Below, piece by piece: positions 4,237-58,726 of a stretch of 60,000 bases of DNA. This stretch comes from Lytechinus pictus (lineage: Eukaryota). The notes under the pieces were generated by a model, which had not been told where the DNA came from, ran no database searches, and saw only the letters and a list, made by a program, of their open reading frames with translations. Positions within the stretch are counted from its first letter, which is position 1, and every line of letters begins with the position of its first letter. Made by a program: the position numbers and the translations under genes. The stretch is taken from NCBI RefSeq assembly GCF_037042905.1, contig NC_087250.1, positions 11,658,001-11,718,000 on the forward strand. The letters run 5' to 3'.

Positions 4237-4450
4237 CACTCTTAAAATAGTTGGGCAAAAATTCCCAACTCTTGACCAACCCTGGGCCACATAACCCCAC
4301 ACAACTACTGGTTAAAATTTGGAAATTAAAACTATAACTAGTAACGAATTTGCTCAATTAGATAATAATTGCCCAAAATATATATATATATATTACCAAC
4401 ATAAATCCCCAAACACAGTGGACAGTATGTTGCCCAACATTTCAAGTGTG
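4237..4450. mobile_element. CAC...GTG MITE abutting the previous element
   Basis: ta|cactcttaaaatagttgggc ... gcccaacatttcaagtgtg|ta. Confidence 0.8.
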
Positions 4451-4517
4451 TACTGTTGACGATATGGTTAGAATGTATGCAATATGCACTGATATCGAGG
4501 AACACGGCAGTGACTGT

Positions 4518-4590
4518 CGTTTCAGCCGGGATTCGAACCCGGGTCCCTGGCATGGTGTGCCAATGTCTTCAACCACTGGACCACTGAAAC
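4518..4590 (-). tRNA. tRNA-like cloverleaf, anticodon ACC (probably repeat-borne or pseudo-tRNA)
   Basis: Reverse complement: GTTTCAG TG GTCCAGTGGTTGAAGAC A TTGGC ACACCAT GCCAG GGAC CCGGG TTCGAAT CCCGG CTGAAAC G. Perfect 7-bp acceptor stem, intact T arm and A/B boxes, but A32/C33 are non-canonical. Confidence 0.65.
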
Positions 4591-5560
4591 TTATCAGATC
4601 AAGTAGCCGTGTTCATCAATATCCTTTCAGCAATGGCGCCACGATGGGGGGGGGGGTGATTTATCTACATAACGCAACATTTTAAAACGTCTTTGAAATC
4701 ATGTCATTTTCAGGCTGGGTTTCGCCTTTGATGAAAGATGATAAGGAGAAATTATGTTGGCTTAACTGCTATGAAAAAAACAAATGAAATTTGCAGAATA
4801 AATGCAAAATAATAAAAGATAAAAAATAATAACAAAAGTACACGAAATGTAGCGAATTAGAGGTTTATGTGCGCCGAAACATTTGTGGTAATAATTTAAG
4901 GGAGAGAGGGAGCAAATAGAGAGAGAGAGAGAGAGGGGGGGGGGGGGAGGTTACGGGAAGAATCTTATCTGGAGATATAATTCCCTTCTCTTTTAAATTG
5001 AAAGGAAAATAATTTTCCCGATGAACTACAAAATTGAAATACATCTACGCTCATTTCTTGTTTGATAACGGCAAAGGGATAACAGCTAATTTCTATATAC
5101 TTATCCATTGTGTGTATATTGACAAGCAATGCTTGTCTTTGCCACATGTGTGATGCTTTCGGCTCGTTTCTCACGTTTCAATTTTTTCCATATCCACTTT
5201 TACCCCTCTACATTTTTTTATTCTTCTTTTCGCGAAGAAGTACGTTGTAGTACGTGTCATACAGCGGTGCGCTGCTTGCACTTCGCGCCGGGTGTTTCGG
5301 CTCGATGCTCAATCACGTAGCCGTTCTTATGGCGTGGCGCTGCTCATGATGTACTGAACATCTCCCTTCCTCTCTATCCCCGCTTTTCATCCTCGCGTTT
5401 GTAAACGCGCGCTTTATACATCAATCAGTGTCTCCTTCAAGCTTTATCGAATGATGTATGATAATATGTACTTAAAGTGAAATTAGTCGAAGTGGGCTCT
5501 TGTGGTTTAGAATTAGTCAATTTTTCCTTCTTCGCTACCGCTTTTTTTTTCTTTTTTGGG

Positions 5561-5810
5561 GTTCCCATTTTAATTTCAGGGCTGTCATTTGAAGTGATGT
5601 ATTGGATGTTGGATTTGTAGTAGAGCAAAGAGGATAGCCGTGCTGAAGAGTAGGACTAAGACAATGATGAGTGTGTACACAGAATGAGATAGATAGATAT
5701 ATAGATAGAGTACGGGGGAGAGAGGAGAGTAGGTTATTGATATTATCTGTATAGAAGAATACATACGTAGTAGTAGTAGTAGAAATAGTAGAAATAGAAA
5801 TAATAGTATC

Positions 5811-5854
<44 letters not shown>

Positions 5855-5993
5855 TAGTAGTAGTAGAAGTAGTAGTATAGTAGTAGTAGTAGTATCAGTA
5901 GTAGTAGTAGTAGTATCAGTAGTAGTAATAGTAGTAATAGTAGTAGGAGTAGTAGGAGTAGTAGGAGTAGTTGAAGTAGTAGTAGTAGAAGTT

Positions 5994-6030
<37 letters not shown>

Positions 6031-6364
6031 TAGTAGTAGTAGTAGTAGTTAGTTGTAGTAGTAGTAGTAGGAGTAGTAGTAGTAGTAGTAGTAAAATTAA
6101 TAGTTCCCGTTTTAATTTCAGGGGTGTCAGTTGAAGTAATGTATTGTATTGGATTTGCAGTAGAGCAAAGAGGATAGCCGTGCTGAAGAGTGGGACTAAG
6201 ACAATGATGAGTGTGTACACAGAATGAGATACAGTAGACATGGTAGATAGATATATAGATATAGTACGGGGGAGAAAGGAGGGTAGGTTATTGATATTAT
6301 CTGCATAGAAGAAGACATAAGTAGTAGTAGTAGTAGTAGTAGAAGTAGAAGTAGTAGTAGTACC

Positions 6365-6410
<46 letters not shown>

Positions 6411-6488
6411 TAGTATCAGTAGTAGTAGTAGTATCAGTAGTAGTAGTGGTAGTAGTAGTAGTAGTAGGAGCAGTAGTAGTAATAGTAA

Positions 6489-6542
<54 letters not shown>

Positions 6543-6572
6543 GAGTACTAGAAGTAGAAGTAGTAGTAGTAG

Positions 6573-6626
<54 letters not shown>

Positions 6627-6632
6627 GAGTAG

Positions 6633-6668
<36 letters not shown>

Positions 6669-12165: not shown

Positions 12166-12298
12166 ATTTTTACGTCTAGGGCCAACTTTTAAGGCCACCA
12201 TCCAAACGAAGAGACCGGGACTCGGACCTGGAATCTCTTCATCAATTCAGAACTTCCCCTCTTAGCTTGGATTACATGCGCACGCCACAACGCCAAGT
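12166..12298 (-). mobile_element. SINE with 7SL(Alu-domain)-like head, diverged copy
   Basis: Reverse complement: acttggcgttgtggcgtgcgcatgtaatccaagctaagaggggaagtt...; aligns with 36031-36219. Confidence 0.75.
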
Positions 12299-26141: not shown

Positions 26142-26188
<47 letters not shown>

Positions 26189-26191
<3 letters not shown>

Positions 26192-26475
26192 TGAAAGAAA
26201 TGGATGAAGAGAACAATGGTAGGCGTAGCTTAAATCAAGGTTCCCCAGAGCTATCTACCCTTTTTGGCACCGGCACCGGCGTTCAAAGCTGGGGGCCCGG
26301 GTTCGATTCCCGGCAGAGACATTTTTTCGGCATCACCAATTTTTCCAAAAAGGGTAGATAGCTCTGGGGAACCTTGATTTAAGCTACGCCTACCATTGTT
26401 CTCTTCATCCATTTCTTTCACACAATATTTAAATAAAAGAGTTGCCAAAGCTGTAGTACATGTATAACTTCACAC

Positions 26476-26478
<3 letters not shown>
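26189..26478 (+). mobile_element. Element within (TA)n: perfect 79-bp inverted repeats enclosing a partial tRNA-like module
   Basis: Arms 26189-26267 and 26345-26423 are exact reverse complements; the loop holds ccggc gttcaaa gctgg gggc ccggg ttcgatt cccgg cagagac followed by a T-run. Confidence 0.8.
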
Positions 26479-26545
<67 letters not shown>

Positions 26546-36030: not shown

Positions 36031-36219
36031 TGTGTGTGTGCGTGTGTGTATTTGAGTTTTGTCAGACGTGTATCAATCAGATATGATTATTTACGTCTGG
36101 GACCGACCTTAAACGTCACCATCCGAAAGACGTGACCAGGGCTCGAACCTCGAACCTCTGAATCAATTTGTAACTTCCCCACATAGCTTGGATTACAGGC
36201 GCACGCCACAACACCCAGT
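36031..36219 (-). mobile_element. SINE with 7SL Alu-domain-like head, B box, Deu/Nin-like body and (CA)n tail
   Basis: Reverse complement: actgggtgttgtggcgtgcgcctgtaatccaagctatgtggggaagtt ... ggttcgagccc ... tttcggatggtgacgtttaaggtcggtcccagac ... (ca)n. Confidence 0.8.
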
Positions 36220-37567: not shown

Positions 37568-39757
37568 CTGTAAAGCACACCAATTAACATGCATTTTATT
37601 ACCACATGGTCATGATGATGGCGATGTGCCCTTTTAAAACGGTAAATTAACACTTAAGTTCGATTCTGCTCGTAACACACAACGCAACCACCGTCTAGCC
37701 TTTTATGTGTCGAATAAATGCAAAAGTTTTCAGCGTAATGTCATGAAGTAGACGGGGGAGTCTCCAGAGCCCCCCTCCCGGTTCCGTTACCCCTCAGCCT
37801 CAGTGTTTTACGATTTTTTTGTGTGGAAATAACGTAACCTGGGTATTCACCAATAGAATGAATACGGAAAGCAAAATGCAAGAGCAGCGGGCGTAGCCAT
37901 GATTGGTAGCAACACTAACAACAACAAAAACAATTTTGCGAAATAGCACTAAGCTCGGAATGTTTAGAGCGTATATCGCAAACATAGGATACGCCACGTT
38001 TATCATGTTTATCAACTTCATGAAATACAATAAGGTATGACATGTTCAGTATTACCTCTATATAGGCCTTCACAACTATCCTATAGTCAGATAGTTCTTA
38101 ACAAAGTTGAATTTCATTTGAGGTTCCCAGTATGAAGCAAGCCAATTATCAGATATATACATTCATTATTTCTCTTTTGCTATCGTTTTAAATGCAGCAT
38201 TTGGACATTATATTTTACAGATAATTTTCCCTCTTCCCCTTTTAATCCCTCTTATTTTCATTCCTCCAGTGAGTCTTCTTTTTTCCATTTTGAAAAACAC
38301 AACGCCCAAGTCAATTGACAAAATCTTGATTTCTGTAGCATGTCTTGAAAGAATACCCTAAAATGAGATTGTTCTATAACACACTGCACTTTTCTTTCCT
38401 AAGTTTGCTCCCAATCAAATTTACATTCTTTCACCAGACCATGACGTTTTCATTATTTTTTTGCGAATTTATTAAAATTGAGATGGAAAGAATAGAACGA
38501 GAGGGGGGGGGGGGGCTTAGCAGATGTTGACCTTTCATTCGCCCTTTACTCTTATTATCATTTTTACATGTCTCTCCTTTTCTCTCTCCGTCTTTCTTAC
38601 TTTTTTTTGTTCCAGAGGTCCCCCTTCTGTGTGACATGTGGTCTTGCGGGACATGTGGTGGCTATCGATCGCTGACAAAACCTATCGATCGGGAATAGCT
38701 GCGTGAAGGCTGGCGATCGATAGCGCTGTTGTGAACACCGTAAAAATACCGCCACATGCTCCCTCTAAAAAACAAAGCGGCACAAAAGGGGGAATTCAAT
38801 TCGAATAGCGCAGTACAGACTTCATGAATATTTGATGTTCAGGATTAAAGGAAAATCGGCTTGTTATCCTCTTAAGGGCTGGAAAATAATTTCTGTGGAA
38901 TTAGGAGAGAGTGCTTGACGAGGGACACTAACTGTAAAAAAAAGTTTTATGAAGATTAGTTGCAGTTAAGCGGATTTGGAACAAGCAGATATGAGGCCAA
39001 AGCAATAAACATTCCGTTACTTGGCTGATGATTACTAAGCTAACAGAAGCTAATGCGCGGCGCAGTCACAACACCGGAACCGTCTCCAGACCGACCAAAC
39101 CTACTACGTTATTACAAATGCCATATCAACGATCCGTTTTGGAGTCGGTTTCATTGGTGTGTCTGTAGCAATACAAAAATAGAATATAAAAGATTCAATC
39201 ATAGAGCCCTGACAGACGCCATCAACTTCTGACAATCTCACTGACAAAAGGAATGTTATAACCACACTCTTAACATAATTATTCAAAATACGTCGAACGA
39301 GAGACAGATGGTCTTAAAGTTATGTATACATTTCAGTAATCTATTTTGGTCAGATATTACCCAGTCGAAAGCAACCAGAAAAGAGTACAATAATGAAATA
39401 AAGATAGGTGCGCCTGAGTGACCATTTTATCCATAGAAATTTCTAGTTACTTTATTTCAGTTGTGTACCGTAAAATGTTTTTGCAAGCATGATTATGCTC
39501 ATTCGTATGATTTTTTTAAAGACAAAGAGAGGGAGGGAGGCCGGGGGGCGAAATTATTTTTTCCACCGAGTTCTGGACCAACATATGAATATTCATGACT
39601 TGCGTCTTCGGATTGAGAGTACGCATGCGCGTGGACCAGTGCCGATCGTAAGCATTCACGTTGCTCAGAATGAATTGGCATCGTCAAATTACCGGTACCC
39701 TTACATAGATGACATAGGCCTTATAGGCTTAGATCTATATATATATATATATATATA

Positions 39758-40578
39758 CAGTGCGTCCCACAAAAAACGAAACCGAGATTTATCGATGATT
39801 AATCATAAATTAATCACAAATACAATAGACAAATGACCTACCATTGTAAAGCTTAGAATCTCCTCTTTCATCATAAATTACTTAGATTCTTTCTCATCCA
39901 CTTATGAGTGAGCAAAAACAATTTGAAGAGGGGATAGCAAAAAGTCATTTGGTGGGCTGTATCTGGGTTTCAAAAAGAAAAACACATTTTTAAAAAGTTC
40001 AATATCTGCTTTTTAATTTGATACCTCAATTACAGAAAATGGTCGAGAAATAACAAAGTTCTGGTTATTTGAAATAAGGCTTGAATTTCAATAATTTCAG
40101 AAAATGAAGAGGTTCTGCAGGCTAGCGTTCAAACTCACTTGACATTCCGCTTTTTTTGACGATCAGCCATGCATTAAGTCTTTTGTTAACCATGGGATAG
40201 CTTCTGTGGGAAACCGGTGAAAACACGTTTATTTAATGAAATTATGGAAATACAATAATTGTTTCGAGAGAACATAACTTGTTTACTTCTTGACCATTTT
40301 TTATGATTAAGGTATCAAATAAAAGAGCAGATATTGAACTTTCTAGGCATGTGGTTTTCTTTTTGAAATTCAGATACCCCCCACCAAATGAGTTTTTTGT
40401 ATCCTTTCTTCAAATTGTTTTTGCTCACTCATGCGTGAATGAGGAATAATCTAAGTAATATCAGATGAAAGAGGAGATTCTAAGCTTTACATTGGTAGGT
40501 CATTTGTCTATTGTATTTGTGATTTAGTTATGATAAATCATCGCTTAATCTCGGTTTCGTTTTTTCTGGGACGCACTG
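39758..40578. mobile_element. Tc1/mariner-type MITE with ~300-bp TIRs, inserted in (TA)n
   Basis: ta|cagtgcgtccca ... tgggacgcactg|ta; absent from the right arm of the duplication. Confidence 0.9.
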
Positions 40579-40712
40579 TATATCCAATCCTTAAACACTT
40601 AATAAACTAGCTGCCATTAATGGCAAGACATGTGCTAGGGTAGGGCTAGCTTAGGCTAGCGCATTAACTTTACCTCAAATCTGGACCTGTCTAATTAATG
40701 CCTAGTACTAAT

Positions 40713-43304
40713 CAGTGTTGTAGTGCCTTGATGCTCGGCCTTGGCCTTAAGGCGCCTTGATGCCTAGCTACTTTTTCAAAGCCTTGGCCTTGAGAGGGCC
40801 TTGGCCTTGAGGATTTTGAGCCTTGAAATTTTAAGGCATTTTCAAGGCATTTTCAAGGCTTTTTCAAGGCATTTTGTATTTTGTACTTTCATTTGTTTTA
40901 AATAAGTAATTATAAATGTTTCAATTGTTTTTTTTATATTTAATAACACTAATGGCCAATACTACCAATTACCAGTAACAGTAGCAGCAGCAGTAGTAAG
41001 TGTACTAGCAGTGTCATCAATTGTAATTGTCACCATTATCAAGAAATTCAAACAAAGAATACATCAGTTTTGAAAAATAGCATTATGTATTAATGTGTTG
41101 TAATCATATGATGATAATGACAGTAAATAATAATGGTCATGATCAAGATAATAGTGCTTTGATGAAAAGAATGATTTTTACATCTGACTGCAATTTTGAC
41201 AACAATTTCATACTTTAAACATATAGCTAACTCTAAAGAACGATAACAAGGTTGATTTCTATTCCATTAGGATTTTCCTTGTATTATTTTCTTTGGCCAA
41301 CAAGAATGTTTTAAGTCTTAATGATATTCTGAAAAGATTTGGTAAACTTGAACACAGTCTCCAATGTTGTCATATCCAAATGGGTTATGTCAATGGCATG
41401 ATGAGCCAGAAACTTTGAAGGGCCAAGCATGGCATATATAGAGCAAAATTTCTGTCAAAAAAATAAGAAAGCGATTGAAGCGAGCGAGTGAACAAAATTT
41501 GTCCCCCTCTTTCTATAAGAAAAGCTAATTTTGCAATAGATTGTTTAAAAAATAATATCACATTTACTCCATCTTTTCCTTCCCCCCCTTGTCTAAGTTT
41601 ATTCTTGGTGGTGGGACTTCTTCTTCTCTCTATCGCTCTTCTAAATTTTATGTTTGTTTTGGTTCAGATTGACAAAACAAAGAGGAGAAAATGTTTACTT
41701 CTTTTTAATCATATATCGTTCAACATTGAATCTCATTTCTCTAAAGTTTCAAGGAAATAAACAACGTATTTGTTTTTGTGTCAATATGGTTTCAAGAAAT
41801 AATAATTAACAAAAAATAATTTAATAATTAATAATCATTAATATTATCAATAAGTATTAATAATTAATGATTAATTAACTGTTTAATAAAAGTGGTTGTA
41901 AGCAGAAAAAAATATGAAAACTGACAAGAGTCCTAAAAATGACTCATTTTCAGTTTAAGCATTTGAAAATTTTAGCTTGCGCTTTGTGCTCTCTTGCCCC
42001 CCCCCCCCCCCAAAAAAAAAAATCCCTGTAGGATTTTTTTTCCCAAATGAAATATGCCCTTTTTAAAAAAGAAATACCTTCTTTAATAATAAAACATAAT
42101 ACATTTTAGGTTCGAAAATCACAGATTTTGAATCGCGCTTGCATCAATTATTGTTTATTACAGTACTGCTAATGGTTACAAAAATGTATAGAATGTTGCT
42201 TTATGGTTGAAATATCACAAATATTTGGCTCGCTTCCTGCACTCGCATCAATTATTGTACTCGTTCTCTTCCCGTTCACAAAAAAATGCTTAGAATGTCC
42301 AGTTTTCAGGTTGGAATATTACAAATTTTTGAGCTCGCGCTTTGCGCTCGCATTATTTTTTATTGGTGAGTTATGTATCTTATTTAAAATGCAGTAATTA
42401 ACTTTGCTTCCTTTACTGGTCAGTATATAAAAAGAATTAGCGAGGGCAAAGTTATTTTTTAGTTAGATACACATCTTTTTCATGATTACAAAACCAGCTC
42501 AGAATAAAATAATTTCCATGTCTTAGTACACGACATGTCAAGAAGTTTGAGCTGGTGATTCGCGCAAGGAAATTTCAACAATGATTAGCCCCATAATTGA
42601 CCATAAATCAAGTTTTACAACATCAGAATTGATTTTTTTTTCAAAACCGCTTGCTCGCTATGCTTTCTCGCTGAGAAGTAAAACCTAAAGCAAAATATCT
42701 ATCTTATAATTAAAAATCATATTAGAAAGCCTTTGCTCAACTTAATTTCTATAAAACACACAATTACTTCACGCAGTTCATAATCTCATTTTGAAAATAC
42801 ATGTATCTGTTTGCACAAAAAAACTCATTTTGATAAATGGGTGCCTTTTTGGCGTTGACCCCCCCCCCCATAATAATCTTCTGCTGCCCCTGTACAAGGG
42901 AGTGGAGAAAAACATACGTTGAGAATGCCAGGATCAGATGACCGTGGTAATAATAATTATTGCAATGTAAATCGCCTATAGAAAAATTATGGATTATGTG
43001 TACACAGGTAACTATATCATTATTTTAATATGTCTCTATCATGAAATTATTTTTGTTTTAATTGTACAAAGGTTAATTTTTTTCTCGCTCAGTCCCCTCG
43101 CTCACATACATTTTACCATGTGTGATGTCTGCCGCCTAAGTATTGTTAGTTCATTGTTCTGTATATCGTAAGTTTGAAATGCCTTGGCCTTGAGGTTTTC
43201 AGGCCTTGGCCTTGGGTTTCCATGCCTTTGCCTTAGGTATTGAAGCCTTGGCCTTGGGTATTAAAGCCTTGGCCTTGGAGGTTTTAGCCTTGACTACAAC
43301 ACTG
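40713..43304. mobile_element. 2.6-kb non-autonomous DNA transposon (hAT-like termini) with subterminal GCCTTG arrays
   Basis: 12-bp perfect TIR cagtgttgtagt / actacaacactg; many gccttg at 40724-40826 and 43181-43292; absent from the right arm; no ORF. Confidence 0.85.
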
Positions 43305-43510
43305 AATAGCCGACTAATGCCATGGTTAACTTCGAACTGGTTAATTCCGAACTTCACGTTTAATTAGGTTTAGACAAATATTAGCTTATTTGCCATGGTT
43401 TAATATGTCTAGTCCGTATACAAAACCAGTCCTAGATCTAAAAAAAAATATCTTAGTTCTAGTCTAGTCTCTATATCTAGACTCTGATCTACGCTGTATC
43501 AGCATGGAAC

Positions 43511-43830
43511 CACTAGTGTACAAAGGGGGGGGGGGAGACTGTCCCTCTGACGAGTCACAACTGATTCAGGGGACGTACCCCCTTTGAGAAGCCAAATTAA
43601 TAATTTGTAATGTAAAAATGCAATGAAAAAGACGTATGTCCCCTTTTTTTAACGTGAAGATCTTTTTTTTTTTTTTGCTTGTCAATTTCTTTTTCAGCTA
43701 AGAAATCCATAATTTGGGGTGAAGACCCTTTTTTTTGGGGGGGGGGGGGGGGGCTTGTCACATTTTTTCGCGGACGAAATATCCTCTAAAAAATTTGCCC
43801 CCCTTTTGGAATATCCTAGGTACACCAGTG
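43511..43830. mobile_element. Poly-G-containing MITE
   Basis: cactagtgtac ... gtacaccagtg; gcatggaac occurs on both sides. Confidence 0.65.
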
Positions 43831-44432
43831 CGTGCATGGAACGTATTCTAACGTCAGGCACAAATTAACGTCAGTGATCTTGATCCCCGTCTTCACCCAA
43901 AATTAAGGATTTCGTAGCTGAAAAAAATTTGACAAGAAAAAAAAAAATCTTCACGTTCAAAAGAGGGGACATACGTCTTTTTTCGTTGCATTTTGACATT
44001 ACAAATTTGGCTTCTCAAGGGGGGGGGGCACGTCCCCTGGATCAGTTGTGACTCGTCAGGGGGGCAGTCTGCCCCCCCCCCTTTGGTACACTAGTGGTTC
44101 CATGCTGATAGCGCGTAGATCAGAGTCTAGATCTAGAGACTAGACTAGAACTAAGATATTTATTTTAGATCTAGGACTGGTTCTGTATACGGACTAGACA
44201 TATTAAACCATGGTAAATAAGCTAATATTGGTCCAAACCTAATCAAACGTAAAGTTCGGAATTAACAAGTTCGAAGTTAGCATGGCATTAGTCGGCTATT
44301 CCTATTAGTATTAGGCATTAGACAGGTCCAGATTTGAGGTAAAGTTAATGCGCTAGCCTAAGCTAGCCCTACCCTAGGCCTAGCACATGTCTTGCCATTA
44401 ATGGCAGCTAGTTTATTAAGTGTTTAAGGATT

Positions 44433-44465
<33 letters not shown>

Positions 44466-46381
44466 TCTAAGCCTATAAGGCCTATGTCACTATGTAAGGG
44501 TACCGGTAATTTGACGATGCCAATTCATTCTGAGCAACGTGAATGCTTACGATCGGCACTGGTCGAGGCCAAGTCCACGCGCATGCGTACTCTCAATCCG
44601 AAGACGCAAGTCATGAATATTCATATGTTGGTCCAGAACTCGGTGGGAAAAATAATTTCGCGGCCGGGGGGGGGGGGTGCAAAAAGCATCGCATAACAAA
44701 ACACATACACACACAACGGTCGGTGAGCTAACACAGTGCCCATGCTGATTTTAAGGATGTAAACCTCACCATCTAAATTATATAATGTGGCTGACACTTT
44801 GATGGAATGTTGTGAAAATTCAGGTAAAAAACATCTGGGTGGGAAAGAAAAGGGGGGGGGGGGGTAAGAATCATCTTGAAGCATGAAACCTTAATATAAT
44901 TTAATCTTTAAAAATGAAAAAAAAAATATATATAAGATTAAGCTTGTGAAGACATATGCCTACAGACATGATAGATGATCTCACTGATTTGACTATTAAT
45001 TGGCCTATTGCGATAACACATGCTAGAACCTCCAGTAATGTATCATCATATACAGTTATATATCGCCATTGACTAGTTTAGAGGGCTTGATTTCAATTAT
45101 TCAAAATTTTCTTAATTACTTCATTTTTTCCAAAATTATACCATGAAATATTTGAAAAAAAATCTCAAATTGTCGTACTCTATACATTAATGATTAATTG
45201 GCCGCGCAGCTTGTACTAACATTGTGAGCACACATTATTATATTGGAACATAACTGTAAAAACCATATGGGCTTTCCCGGAAAGATATACAAATCGTTTA
45301 ACAGGTTATGTACACATTAAACAATGATTTTTGTAAAACATTACTCATTGTTTTACCGTAAAAGAAACATACGCGATTTTTTCTGCGTACAAAAATTATT
45401 GCTTCATTTCGACAAGAGCGCATGATTTAATGGAAAAATTCTACACAACAATTGAAAAATCCTAAACAGTATTTCGTGTATATTATCTAACAAATCCACA
45501 TTTTCCTTTTTGCCAACCAGGGGTTAGATCTACATGGGTTGACCTTTCACAACTGTTATTGAACATTTTTTGGGCTTAACATAAATGTATGGAATTTATG
45601 AATGTGTTAATGATGTTGCATTGAATAGATATGGTCACAGAAAAAATAGGAACATTTGCCATATCTATTATTTTTCAAATTAAAGCAACAACAACAATAA
45701 TAATGATAATAATAATATTGATAATACTAATAATGATAATATTTACAATAATAATATTAATAATAATAATAATAATAACAACACCAACAACAATAATAAT
45801 AATATTCAACAACAATAACGTTTAACACAATCTTTGTATGGGCGTTCCATACTATCACCAATGAAATCAGTTAATTGGCTAAGATTAACATAAATTAACT
45901 AAAAATCGAATGGATTTGAAAGAAAACGAGTAGAAAGTCAAAGAAGGGACCAGAAAAAAAAATCTCTTTTAAGAAACTAAACAAGTAAAAGGAGACAGAA
46001 AGACACGAAAATGAGCAAAATGAATCATCATTAGATCGAAAACAACAAGCAAATTAATAAAATAATAAAATAATAACATCTAAACACTAAACAGACCCCC
46101 GAAAGTTTTAATAAATGATGCTACTCAAATATCACCGAATAATCTCCCTTCCCAGGTAATCTACGTTCCACAATTACTATAGGTGGCGATATTGCGTAGA
46201 AAAACAAACCTGCTATCATAGTGTAGTAAAAAAAAAAAAAATAAATCTGGAACGCAAGTGAGTATTGAACTTCCCCACTAGGTGGCGCTGTTCCATTTCT
46301 TACCACTGCTACGATAGAGTTGTGCGAAAACTCGATTGTACATGTGGAATAATCTTGCCTTAAATCTTCTTCCATTTTTGT

Positions 46382-55353: not shown

Positions 55354-56461
55354 ATGGGAAACTTGGTAATCATTGGCTTTAGTGCTCTACGAAACACAAT
55401 CAGGATGCCGTTTGGGTGGATACAGAGGTTGCGGGATAGGATTAATCCCCGATCTGGAGAATCGACACCTTCAACGACGCAGGACATCATGGAAGGGGTT
55501 CCTGATAATCTCCAGGAACACTTCAACGTGATCGTCAATGCTGTCAACCACGTTGAGAGCTCTTCGGACATCCTCAGTAGTACCTGTCTGAGTGGCATGG
55601 TCTTGGTCAAAGAGACGTCTGGCAACTCTGCTCTTGATCAGGGCAGGCTCGGTGACCTGATGGCGGACCGAACGAACTTCTCCCGTATGTTTGTATCGTG
55701 CTGGAAAAAGAAGAATCTGTTGCAGATGTTCATCAATGCTTCAGACACTGACACATTGGTCAAGGAGGCGCAGCGGTCATTTGACTTCTACCGGGCTCTG
55801 GCAGGAATCTCCTGGAACTACACCGACGAGTCGGATGCAATTTGCCTGAAGCTCGAGGAAGAAGGTGGACTGGCAGTACTGGTTGACTGGATGCTGTCCT
55901 TTCAGAGCACCGCCTTGAACAAATGGGCCACAGAGATAGTCTTCAACGTGCTAAACATCCTGCACAACTGCTGTAGGAGGATCGACGACATTCGAAGGAG
56001 CTACCGACGGATCGTCCCAGCGTTGGAGAGGCTGTCCACTTCAGAAGACCTGATCGTCCAAGCGTGTGCTTTCATGACTCTCTCCTACATGGTGGACAAA
56101 GAGGAAGCCGATAAGCTCACCACCAATGCTGCCTGCGTGGACAACCTGCTGACCCTTCTCAAGAAGTCTCTGGAGAACGTCGAGCACAAGATCCGGATCA
56201 CCCGGGAAACTGGTACAGACGCCTTCAGAAGAGGCTTTTCTCTGTCTTCCATCGAGCTCGTTCAGGGTATCGAACAACTTGCCATCAATGACGAGAACAA
56301 ACGCCTTATCGCCGAGACGGATGGCATCGCAATCCTATCTAGGATGCTGGAAATGGATTGTACATCTCAAGAGAAAAGACATGCAGCAGAAGGTATCTGG
56401 CAGCTTGCATTTAGGCAGGAGAACAAGGATAAACTACGAGAAGAGCACGACGTACTCAAAG
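55354..56461 (+). CDS. ARM-repeat/TIR-domain protein, first coding exon (Armadillo-like repeats)
   Basis: 369-codon complex ORF with raised GC. ARM-like motifs: EEGGLAVLVDW, VLNILHNC, GIEQLAINDENKRLIAETDGIAILSRML, AAEGIWQLAF. Donor G|gtaagg at 56461/2; probable acceptor ttcacag| at 55178; in-frame TAG just before the ATG. Confidence 0.9.
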
Positions 56462-57279
56462 GTAAGGTTGAACATACAGAATCAATACAAACCTGGTTTT
56501 GGGTCTGACGAATTAATCTCACGAGAAAATACACCAATGAATTCTGCAAAGCCTCAATAATATTTTATTTTAATAAGCACTTATCGACGTGTAGAGAAAA
56601 AAGAAGACGTCAAAGACCAAGGAGAGAAGAAAAAATTGATGATGAAGAATCCGAAGAATGATGCTTTATGCATGAATGTATCATGGTTGCTATCTAGTTA
56701 ACGAATTATTTTGGGGTTAGATGAAGATTCTGATGGTATTTAAGACTTTATTAAACTATAGCCTTAGGTATCGCCATCTGCAAACTAAAATTGATAGTCA
56801 ATCATTGTTATTACCATGCCTTCTTATGATTACGGTTAAAGAAGAATGGAGTATCTTAAAATCGCAATCAGATATGCATCTTTGAGAAAGAACGGCATGC
56901 AATTGTATTTTCTCATCATAAACTGTTCAACTTGAGCAAACCATAAGCCTGAAAAGATTTCTTTTCCTGGATCACTTTTCACGTGAAACTATGAGACGTA
57001 TTTTGTTACAGTATGAAAGTTGGTTTAATTAGATTGATGATAAAACTCGGAAATTTAATACTGGAGATTACATAGAGTAGACGACCTGCGTCATCAGTTG
57101 ATTCATTTGTAAACACCTGCGATGCCTTGAAAATAAACAACAAAAAACCCAAACACACACTCACATAAATACCCCACTTCTGTTCGGCATATGACATTGA
57201 TTCCCTGATTATTGGCATAAGCGGAATTATAAGGTCAGACGGGAGTATACTGTTTTTTACGTTTATTCTATCATTTTAG

Positions 57280-57552
57280 AACTAATAGCCCTGTCATGTG
57301 GACCCGACCCTGCCCTCAATCGAGCTTGCAAGGGAGCGCTATTCGAAATCTACAGCTCCAAACTTCCCGAAGAGGTGACCACACCAAAGACAAGTACAGC
57401 CTCACAGACGCCCTCTACGACGACTGAAAAACCATCGCAGCATATCATGATAAGCTACAGATGGGAACAGCCTTCAAAGTCTGTCATGAGCGAGATCAAG
57501 AACCAGCTGAAAAGCAAGGGTTATAATGTATGGATGGATGAAGATAAAATGA
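57280..57552 (+). CDS. ARM-TIR protein exon: last ARM helix, S/T-rich linker, start of TIR
   Basis: ttttag|..|gtaagt, phase 1/1, in frame: ELIALSCGPDPALNRACKGALFEI...HIMISYRWEQPSKSVMSEIKNQLKSKGYNVWMDEDKM. Confidence 0.9.
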
Positions 57553-58441
57553 GTAAGTATACCCCCACCCCTAGAATCTTGAACCTTAAACAAGTATTCT
57601 TTCCAAAAGTGTAGCCGCTGTCCTGGACCCCATAACACAAAAGTTAGCGAGGAACGCTTAATAAAATGGCCTATCAAGATCATCCTTGGTTGCGCATTTT
57701 GCTCAGTAGACTGATTAGTAACCAATCAGAATGGATAATTCAAATTATCGATTAATAGCTTATCTTGTGTTAAGTAGACCAAGAGAAGACTTAACTATTT
57801 CGCGTGCAGCCGGGGCTTCATGTAATATGGGGATCATGTGGTCGTATTCTTCTGTGCACTGTATACATTGTGCTTAGTGCTAAGCTTGACAGATGAAAAA
57901 CAAAACCAACAGAGATCAAATCCACTTATGCAAAATAATGATATAATTGCAAACCAGAGTGCATAACTTGACTATAATTATGTCTATGTATTAGGAATTA
58001 TGTATATACCACGTTTATTTACTGTTTGTCTGAAAAATTGTAAATGTTTATACAGTGTAATTATGCTGTTTGAAAAAAAGAACCATGTGGAAGGGTGAAA
58101 AATGAAAAAAAGGAGTGCATAATGGTGGAATTAATATTTCAAACCATGATGGACAGAATTCTGTGACAGAAACTTAACATTTGCCTTTAATAAATTCTCA
58201 TATTATTTTGAAATTCCAGGTGTACCAATTGAAAAACAAATGATGATGGTTATTCATCCAATGCGAAGGCTGAACATGTCACGTGATGACATTATTCAAT
58301 ATATTTAATGCCTGCCGTAAAGGGTAGATCGATTATATAATCCCAACAAACCACAAAGACACAATCACGCTAGAGAACATCAATACTAATAAAAAGGCGT
58401 AAAAATTAGATATCTTTGATATCGGCAATTTCTACTCCTTA

Positions 58442-58603
58442 TACCTTGGTCACATTTGATCTACGGCGGCCGTACGGCGAGTAGATAACAGCCGTTTTAT
58501 TCATTTTTATTCAAACCACCTATATGTAGCTGGTACAAAAAATGTTAAAACGGCTGTTTTCGACTCGCCGTACGGCCGCCGTAGAGCAAATGTGACCAAG
58601 CTA
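58442..58603. mobile_element. Intronic PIF/Harbinger-type MITE
   Basis: tta|taccttggtcacatttgatctacggcggccgtacggcgagt ... actcgccgtacggccgccgtagagcaaatgtgaccaagcta|tta. Confidence 0.9.
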
Positions 58604-58726
58604 TTACCGACCATGGCCATTCATATTGCAATGGATTTTTCAAAGTATTCTTACTGTTTGAGATTTTGTCTGATTTTAATATAAGATAATTAAAAGTGTG
58701 TATATATATTTCTTACAATACTTCAG

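Follow-up and report, generated by a model that had tools for sequence, protein, structure and literature searches.

A hairpin insertion in a (TA)n run, probably a Penelope-mobilised copy of a high-copy repeat with a tRNA-like module

The insertion at 26189-26478 of the window (the whole stretch of DNA that was analysed, 60,000 nucleotides) is a member of a high-copy repeat family. It probably comprises two 5'-truncated cDNAs of a non-autonomous repeat mobilised by a Penelope-like element (PLE) and joined head-to-head. The hairpin is the insertion product of a longer unit, which continues upstream of the tRNA, and not the fixed design of an element.

Structure of the insertion

The features of the insertion are collected in Table 1. 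Its two arms (26189-26267 and 26345-26423) pair as reverse complements at 79 of 79 positions, enclose a loop of 77 nt (26268-26344) and form the longest exact inverted repeat in the non-simple sequence of the window. The folding z score is -20.6 and none of 200 shuffles equalled the fold of the hairpin. A further 55 bp (26424-26478) lie beyond the right arm, so that the arms are not terminal. The insertion is flanked on both sides by (TA)n, in runs of 43 and 34 nt, within which a target-site duplication is unreadable. In contigs aligned from public runs the match to the family starts at 26272.

The loop contains the 3' part of a tRNA. It is formed by an anticodon arm, CCGGC-GTTCAAA-GCTGG (26276-26292, with one G-U pair), which has TCA as anticodon (26283-26285) and G at position 32; a variable loop of 4 nt; a perfect T arm with the B box (26297-26313); and the acceptor 3' strand CAGAGAC (26314-26320), followed by A and then T6. 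The anticodon arm with TCA, the variable loop, the perfect T arm, CAGAGAC and the T6 run had been described in the earlier note, together with the missing 5' half of the tRNA, the stretch of about 55 bp between the right arm and (TA)n and the identity of the arms, and all were recovered, the last by exact reverse-complement comparison. The statement that the structure is very young or actively homogenised was overstated: 0 differences in 79 positions bound the divergence of the arms only at <3.7% (95%), and homogenisation is unneeded because the copying of both arms at insertion accounts for their identity.

Table 1. Features of the hairpin insertion and of its flanks (positions in the window).
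Feature	Position	Strand	Remarks
Left (TA)n target run	26146..26188		43 nt; (TATG)n before it
Inverted 5'-truncated body copy	26189..26267	-	Equals body 26345-26423; without tail; begins on reverse complement of TTCACAC
Head-to-head junction	26266..26277	+	GG common to arm end, plus 4 extra nt; 6-bp tandem duplication GGCACC
tRNA-like 3' part	26272..26321	+	D-arm end, anticodon arm, variable loop, T arm, acceptor 3' strand, discriminator A
T6 run, Pol III terminator-like	26322..26327	+	Second T5 at 26340-26344
Repeat body	26328..26423	+	Right arm is 26345-26423; A>G clusters on 26351-26386
Inner end motif TTCACACA	26417..26424	+	Outer end of inverted copy; putative first RT start site
One-sided tail, 52-55 bp	26424..26478	+	AATAAA at 26432; terminates on second TTCACACA
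Second TTCACACA	26469-26476	+	Putative second RT start site
Right (TA)n target run	26479..26514		Then (GA)n

Copies of the repeat and the probable mode of insertion

Sequence of the stretch was found in public sequencing runs, of which 24 were listed, 20 containing the whole or part of it and 17 half or more. These runs belong to 11 studies and carry four organism labels, plus two marine metagenomes. Contigs were compared from 4 of the 24, namely X3 (DNA), X10, X11 and X18. In X3 alone 4,995 contigs align on the 290 bp, and their depths add up to about 950,000 over the tRNA, while single long pieces and joints have 16-133. Such depths do not translate directly into copies, and the copy number may be placed loosely at about 600 to 38,000. 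The family was found at no locus in viral contigs and at none in two metagenome scans, and a lone match in a prokaryote genome was rejected as an 18-nt chance match. Within the window no further copy was found except for a T-arm match at 4519-4547.

The inner joints vary among copies. Of the 15 joints listed (29 in all), 11 link an inverted arm to a sense piece, and 3 further ones come from another table, giving at least 14 distinct joints of this kind, all in X3 and at a depth of 26-133. The inverted pieces end at many positions and the sense pieces begin anywhere from 26306 to 26431. Several joints bear short inserts templated by neighbouring sequence, comparable to the GGCACC duplication at 26266-26277; six of the 14 lie no more than 4 nt from a perfect palindrome centre, and four of these six fall on an A run in which a 2-bp deletion is common.

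The outer ends are narrow while the inner ones vary. Loose ends (here and below, those among the rows listed, 21 of 340) continue after 26476-26477 as (CA)n or (TA)n in 44 contigs of X3 and 4 of X10, and after 26435 as (TA)n in 2 contigs of X10 and 8 of X11, the ends at 26435 being off the TTCACAC(A) motif. The 5' truncation is thus variable and the 3' end defined, since sense pieces start variously and loose ends cluster after 26476-26477. X18 gives no cover beyond about 26428.

A foldback DNA element or ordinary MITE that had captured a tRNA fragment, and whose terminal inverted repeats (TIRs) are fixed, would share the hairpin shape, the TA flanks and the 7-bp inverted motif present at both outer ends, and true MITEs are common in the window. 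Such an origin is quite improbable, however: the 55-bp tail leaves the arms non-terminal, the outer ends have only 7 bp in common, other copies have longer arms, and many copies run past the junction into a full tRNA (55 contigs in X3). Since the joints vary among copies, the arms are not fixed TIRs. The expectation of the earlier note that arm length and joint would differ from copy to copy was borne out by the 14 or more distinct joints; these joints and the asymmetric tail contradict a family with fixed TIRs like an ordinary MITE, the outcome that it had set against its own proposal.

No contig over the junction of the 26189-26478 copy itself was present among the 27 of 5,784 pieces listed, so that the locus is supported at the level of the family only. 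This, and the fact that the best runs contain 0.81 of 21 sampled words, would be compatible with a fold-back chimera made in assembly. The head-to-head joints of the family are nevertheless present in short-read contigs at a depth of 26-133, the arm ends exactly at the family motif and has a flank of its own, and the junction bears a templated insert, making an assembly artefact extremely improbable.

Both outer ends of the copy lie on TTCACAC(A), at 26417-26424 and 26469-26476, 52 bp apart. A 7-mer is repeated at that spacing at 153 of 51,441 window positions, in a test devised after the motif had been seen. Paired ends of this kind are expected of two start sites of reverse transcription (RT) bounding a Penelope tail. 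PLE insertions are described as lying in (TA)n targets, truncated at the 5' end, next to an inverted and likewise truncated copy, and with a tail of 30-40 bp on one side only (PMC8557442). In vitro, AT-rich DNA is cut by a PLE on both of its strands, and reverse transcription begins at two places in an AC-rich RNA, which delimit a tail (PMC11167929), while head-to-head PLE joints show palindromes and microhomology (PMC3846280). The Penelope-like layout suggested in the earlier note fits these three sources, and non-autonomous PLE passengers are already known (bioRxiv 10.64898/2026.07.22.740005). The class of non-autonomous, TA-targeting elements proposed in the same place holds as regards the (TA)n or (CA)n ends and this layout, and fails as regards the hairpin as a fixed design.

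The following course is proposed. A young, high-copy, non-coding repeat would borrow the reverse transcriptase and the GIY-YIG endonuclease of a PLE that targets (TA)n. A long read-through RNA of the repeat, in tRNA sense and probably made by Pol II, would be bound by the PLE protein, which would nick the (TA)n run on both strands. Two AC-rich sites within this RNA, each reading TTCACAC(A) and separated by 52 nt, would serve as starts of cDNA synthesis. The first cDNA would start at the outer site, include the tail and end after about 207 nt within the D arm of the tRNA; the second, primed on the other target strand, would run from the inner site for 79 nt. The two cut-off ends would be joined via the GG microhomology, with a slip duplication of 6 bp. 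Simultaneous copying from like templates is the proposed source of the identity of the arms.

The length of the tail counts against the PLE reading: at 52-55 bp here, and about 43 bp where copies end at 26435, it exceeds the published range of 30-40 bp. Nor did the searches reveal an autonomous PLE with a shared end: none of the 184 window frames (>=62 aa, low-complexity excluded) matches an RT or GIY-YIG family. The end motifs were also sought in the supplement of PMC8557442, a set with no sea-urchin entry, where six motifs gave 1 match and two 8-mers gave 6 and 9, none at the end of a record.

A rolling-circle repeat of the Helentron/DINE type, or a satellite-like one, with the hairpin added later by fold-back synthesis at a break in (TA)n, would fit the near-palindromic joints. 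Helentron/DINE-type elements favour microsatellites and form tandem cores. Repair of a break would not begin the inverted arm on the end motif of the element itself, nor within a narrow band (26423-26435) in several copies, and the tail has no terminal GC-rich hairpin (fold -2.2 kcal/mol); this origin therefore has a low probability.

The tRNA-like module

The half tRNA at 26272-26321 was not called by ARAGORN or Rfam, and over the element nothing in Rfam reaches gathering level; miRNA-like Rfam matches are a reflection of the hairpin shape. A match to mascRNA at 26266-26320 was rejected at 19.2 bits versus 42.5. Loose ends before 26272 supply a D arm together with GTCTCTG, the 5' strand of the acceptor stem, in X3 (55 contigs), X11 (3) and X18 (1), and combined with the window sequence they make a 7/4/5/5 cloverleaf in the longer copies, as drawn by eye. 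A GTCTCTG 5' stem had been predicted for full-length copies, and it is present in the loose ends of three of the four runs. The repeat sequence also extends upstream of the tRNA, by 82 and 255 loose letters in X18.

This arrangement bears on another reading, in which a LINE would have copied a SINE with a tRNA head and twin priming or later repair would have produced the inversion; it is unlikely, though it has several points in its favour. The module is tRNA-derived and has A and B box arms, it is followed by a body and a simple-repeat end, there are at least hundreds of copies, and the whole fits the head-body-tail scheme of PMC3531059. By the definition in the same source, however, the Pol III transcript of a SINE includes the body, and the T6 between tRNA and body argues against a SINE: it stands right after the discriminator, has no variant >=2% listed in any of the four runs and would stop Pol III short of the body. 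The repeat sequence upstream of the tRNA is a further point against it. In twin priming by LINEs the pieces are inverted but non-overlapping, whereas the arm here duplicates the body. The T6 run also speaks against the Pol III unit carrying its body that had been suggested in the earlier note, since Pol III transcription stops there and could not carry the body.

Neither TCA nor T6 has a variant >=2% listed in the four runs, and TCA is the majority form. In X3 there is no such variant over the 50 nt of the module (26272-26321), against 13 variant sites in 103 nt of the body (26334-26436), a contrast with p about 0.01 under an even spread. Selective constraint on the module is only hinted at by these figures, since the variants are not independent and some are in homopolymers.

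The T and D arms have matches among genes for tRNA-Glu and tRNA-Gly. A pattern of D arm plus T arm had one match, a viral tRNA Glu(TTC), and a pattern of loop plus T arm had 105 loci. From 106 fetched loci there were 83 tRNA calls (27 loci without call), 41 of the 83 being Gly(TCC), which is one change from TCA; this excess is biased, given that the pattern favours such loops and that the tRNAs compared are viral. The module may derive from a Gly(TCC)- or a Glu-type tRNA. A tRNA-Sec was rejected, with a 4-nt variable loop, anticodon and T stems of 5 bp and no tRNA-Sec match in Rfam; in tRNA-Sec the variable arm is long and both the acceptor and the D stem are extended.

The module could also be a working UGA-suppressor tRNA gene, multiplied and spread by the repeat, the 26189-26478 copy being a dead fragment of it. 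Such a reading concerns the module and can coexist with the Penelope insertion. It agrees with the cloverleaf and terminator of the longer copies, with TCA as the majority in all four runs and with the scarcity of variants in the module, but G at position 32 of the anticodon loop was found in only 1 of the 83 fetched tRNAs, a rarity that counts against good decoding, and hundreds of active suppressor genes would be expected to be harmful. A functional UGA suppressor appears unlikely on these grounds, and a suppressor gene spread in this way very much so. The module probably either serves the repeat, perhaps through chromatin, as a promoter or in the processing of RNA, or is carried along with it.

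One contig of X18, aligned on 26322-26416, is without the tRNA except for its first 5 nt and is the one bearing the seven A>G changes described below. Clean excision by RNase P/Z was rejected for it, since the retained 5 nt point to a deletion or an RT skip.

Transcripts, related systems and setting

Read-through transcripts of head-to-head copies would form double-stranded RNA (dsRNA), which would be edited by ADAR. Among the changes listed, A>G accounts for 7 of 7 in X18, 8 of 23 in X10 and 1 of 3 in X11, and for 0 of 9 in the DNA run X3; the seven of X18 are on one contig and all inside the arm. The frequency of A>G at these positions is 0.02-0.39% in X3, 2-43% in X10 and 16% in X18, with 5% at one site in X11. 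Over 26351-26386 every A that follows T or A (seven) is changed, whereas the three that follow G are all unchanged; on wider spans, picked post hoc, Fisher p is 0.010-0.013. Sites edited by ADAR are, as a rule in animals, depleted of G on the 5' side (PMC5625713). X10 and X18 are runs of guessed RNA status and other organism labels, compared without matched DNA, so that the A>G changes may instead mark a subfamily. Clusters of A>G in ADAR context within the arm fit dsRNA and suggest, with weak to moderate force, that tRNA-sense transcripts containing the body are double-stranded. The dsRNA foreseen in the earlier note is probable at the level of the family.

The closest known systems are PLE insertions (Naiad, Neptune, Hydra) and non-autonomous Chlamys families such as MRC1. 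They have the same 5' truncation and adjacent inverted truncated copy, the same one-sided tail, (TA)n target and high copy number, and Naiad and Chlamys, like the present repeat, have no hammerhead (PMC8557442). They differ from the repeat described here, which has no ORF and carries a tRNA module with a terminator and a tail of 52-55 bp. In its accessible text that paper uses 'tRNA' once, on selenocysteine, and describes no tRNA module. Animal non-LTR retrozymes are likewise short non-coding repeats of proposed PLE dependence (PMC7229834; bioRxiv 10.64898/2026.07.22.740005), but the present repeat has a tRNA cloverleaf and no hammerhead core: CTGANGA is absent from both strands of the 290 bp, and no Rfam ribozyme family was found there. 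The word 'tRNA' occurs 0 times in the accessible text of the bioRxiv paper.

Helenus/TRIMp3 is another non-autonomous retroelement with an internal tRNA-like sequence, having two direct LTRs, PBS, PPT, TSDs of 4-5 bp and LTR enzymes (PMC10886601); the repeat here consists of inverted truncated copies with a tail and has T6 after the tRNA, and no direct repeat of the body was found in the element or the window. Finally, tRNA-derived SINEs have in common with it the tRNA-derived module, the body, the simple-repeat end and the many copies (PMC3531059), and differ in that here a terminator stands between tRNA and body, sequence is present upstream of the tRNA and an inverted arm is duplicated. No description of a tRNA-bearing PLE passenger was found in the literature searched, which was without Repbase and most subscription papers.

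A broader interpretation is tentative and on the whole doubtful. The family might be a ribozyme-free counterpart of retrozymes, a parasite of Penelope in which an intact, selected tRNA fold replaces the hammerhead, through cutting of the read-through RNA by RNase P or Z of the host or through TFIIIC binding that keeps source loci open. The twin end motif would then correspond to two RT starts, the head-to-head copies would supply edited dsRNA genome-wide, and hundreds of intact tRNA genes with a UCA anticodon would be included. If so, the known PLE passengers would widen from hammerhead-bearing retrozymes to tRNA-bearing repeats, the family would offer a short and abundant natural substrate for the study of how Penelope elements form inverted ends and tails, and the two TTCACAC(A) sites would predict exact RT start positions. 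Scans of the host genome for tRNAs would count many false suppressor tRNAs; the tRNA-like parts of Helenus inflate counts of genomic and suppressor tRNAs (PMC10886601). By itself the 26189-26478 copy is an ordinary truncated insertion. New here are the paired TTCACAC(A) ends, the tally of inner joints that differ between copies, the ADAR-like pattern of A>G changes and a hint that the module is under constraint.

The element at 4491-4623 had been regarded as having the same layout and a near-identical T arm. The likeness of the T-arm region stood (25 of 29 nt) and is the only part that matches; the layout is only loosely the same, and the two do not form one class on present evidence. The element contains a complete tRNA on the - strand (cloverleaf at 4518-4590, Rfam tRNA 50.5 bits, with an odd anticodon loop) enclosed by an imperfect inverted repeat of 18 bp (16 of 18 matches), lacks a T run and is not flanked by (TA)n; it therefore belongs to another family.

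The window is microsatellite-rich animal DNA. The exons of a host gene with armadillo repeats (ARM) and a TIR domain are located at 55354-57611 (TIR_2 E 3.7e-05, short of the curated cut-off). A repeat with internal (TA)n occurs twice, at 39548-40712 and 44304-44661, and its copies form a filled/empty pair: the former contains within its (TA)n a MITE of about 820 bp with CAGTG ends and TA flanks, which we take to be Tc1/mariner-like, and the latter is without it. The copy at 44304-44661 is adjoined by a foldback element (43304-44301) with arms of about 430 bp, 89% alike. A palindromic repeat at 58441-58604 has arms of 82 bp, 83% complementary and with no spacer. Another repeat family with internal (TA)n is represented by an inverted pair, 76% alike, at 2284-2506 and 4247-4450, and a further repeat pair, 80% alike, is found at 36090-36219 and 12169-12298, with a weak match to SRP (7SL) at 36161-36219. 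At 5561-6660 a (TAG)n-rich unit of about 540 bp is duplicated in tandem, its two copies being 87% alike.
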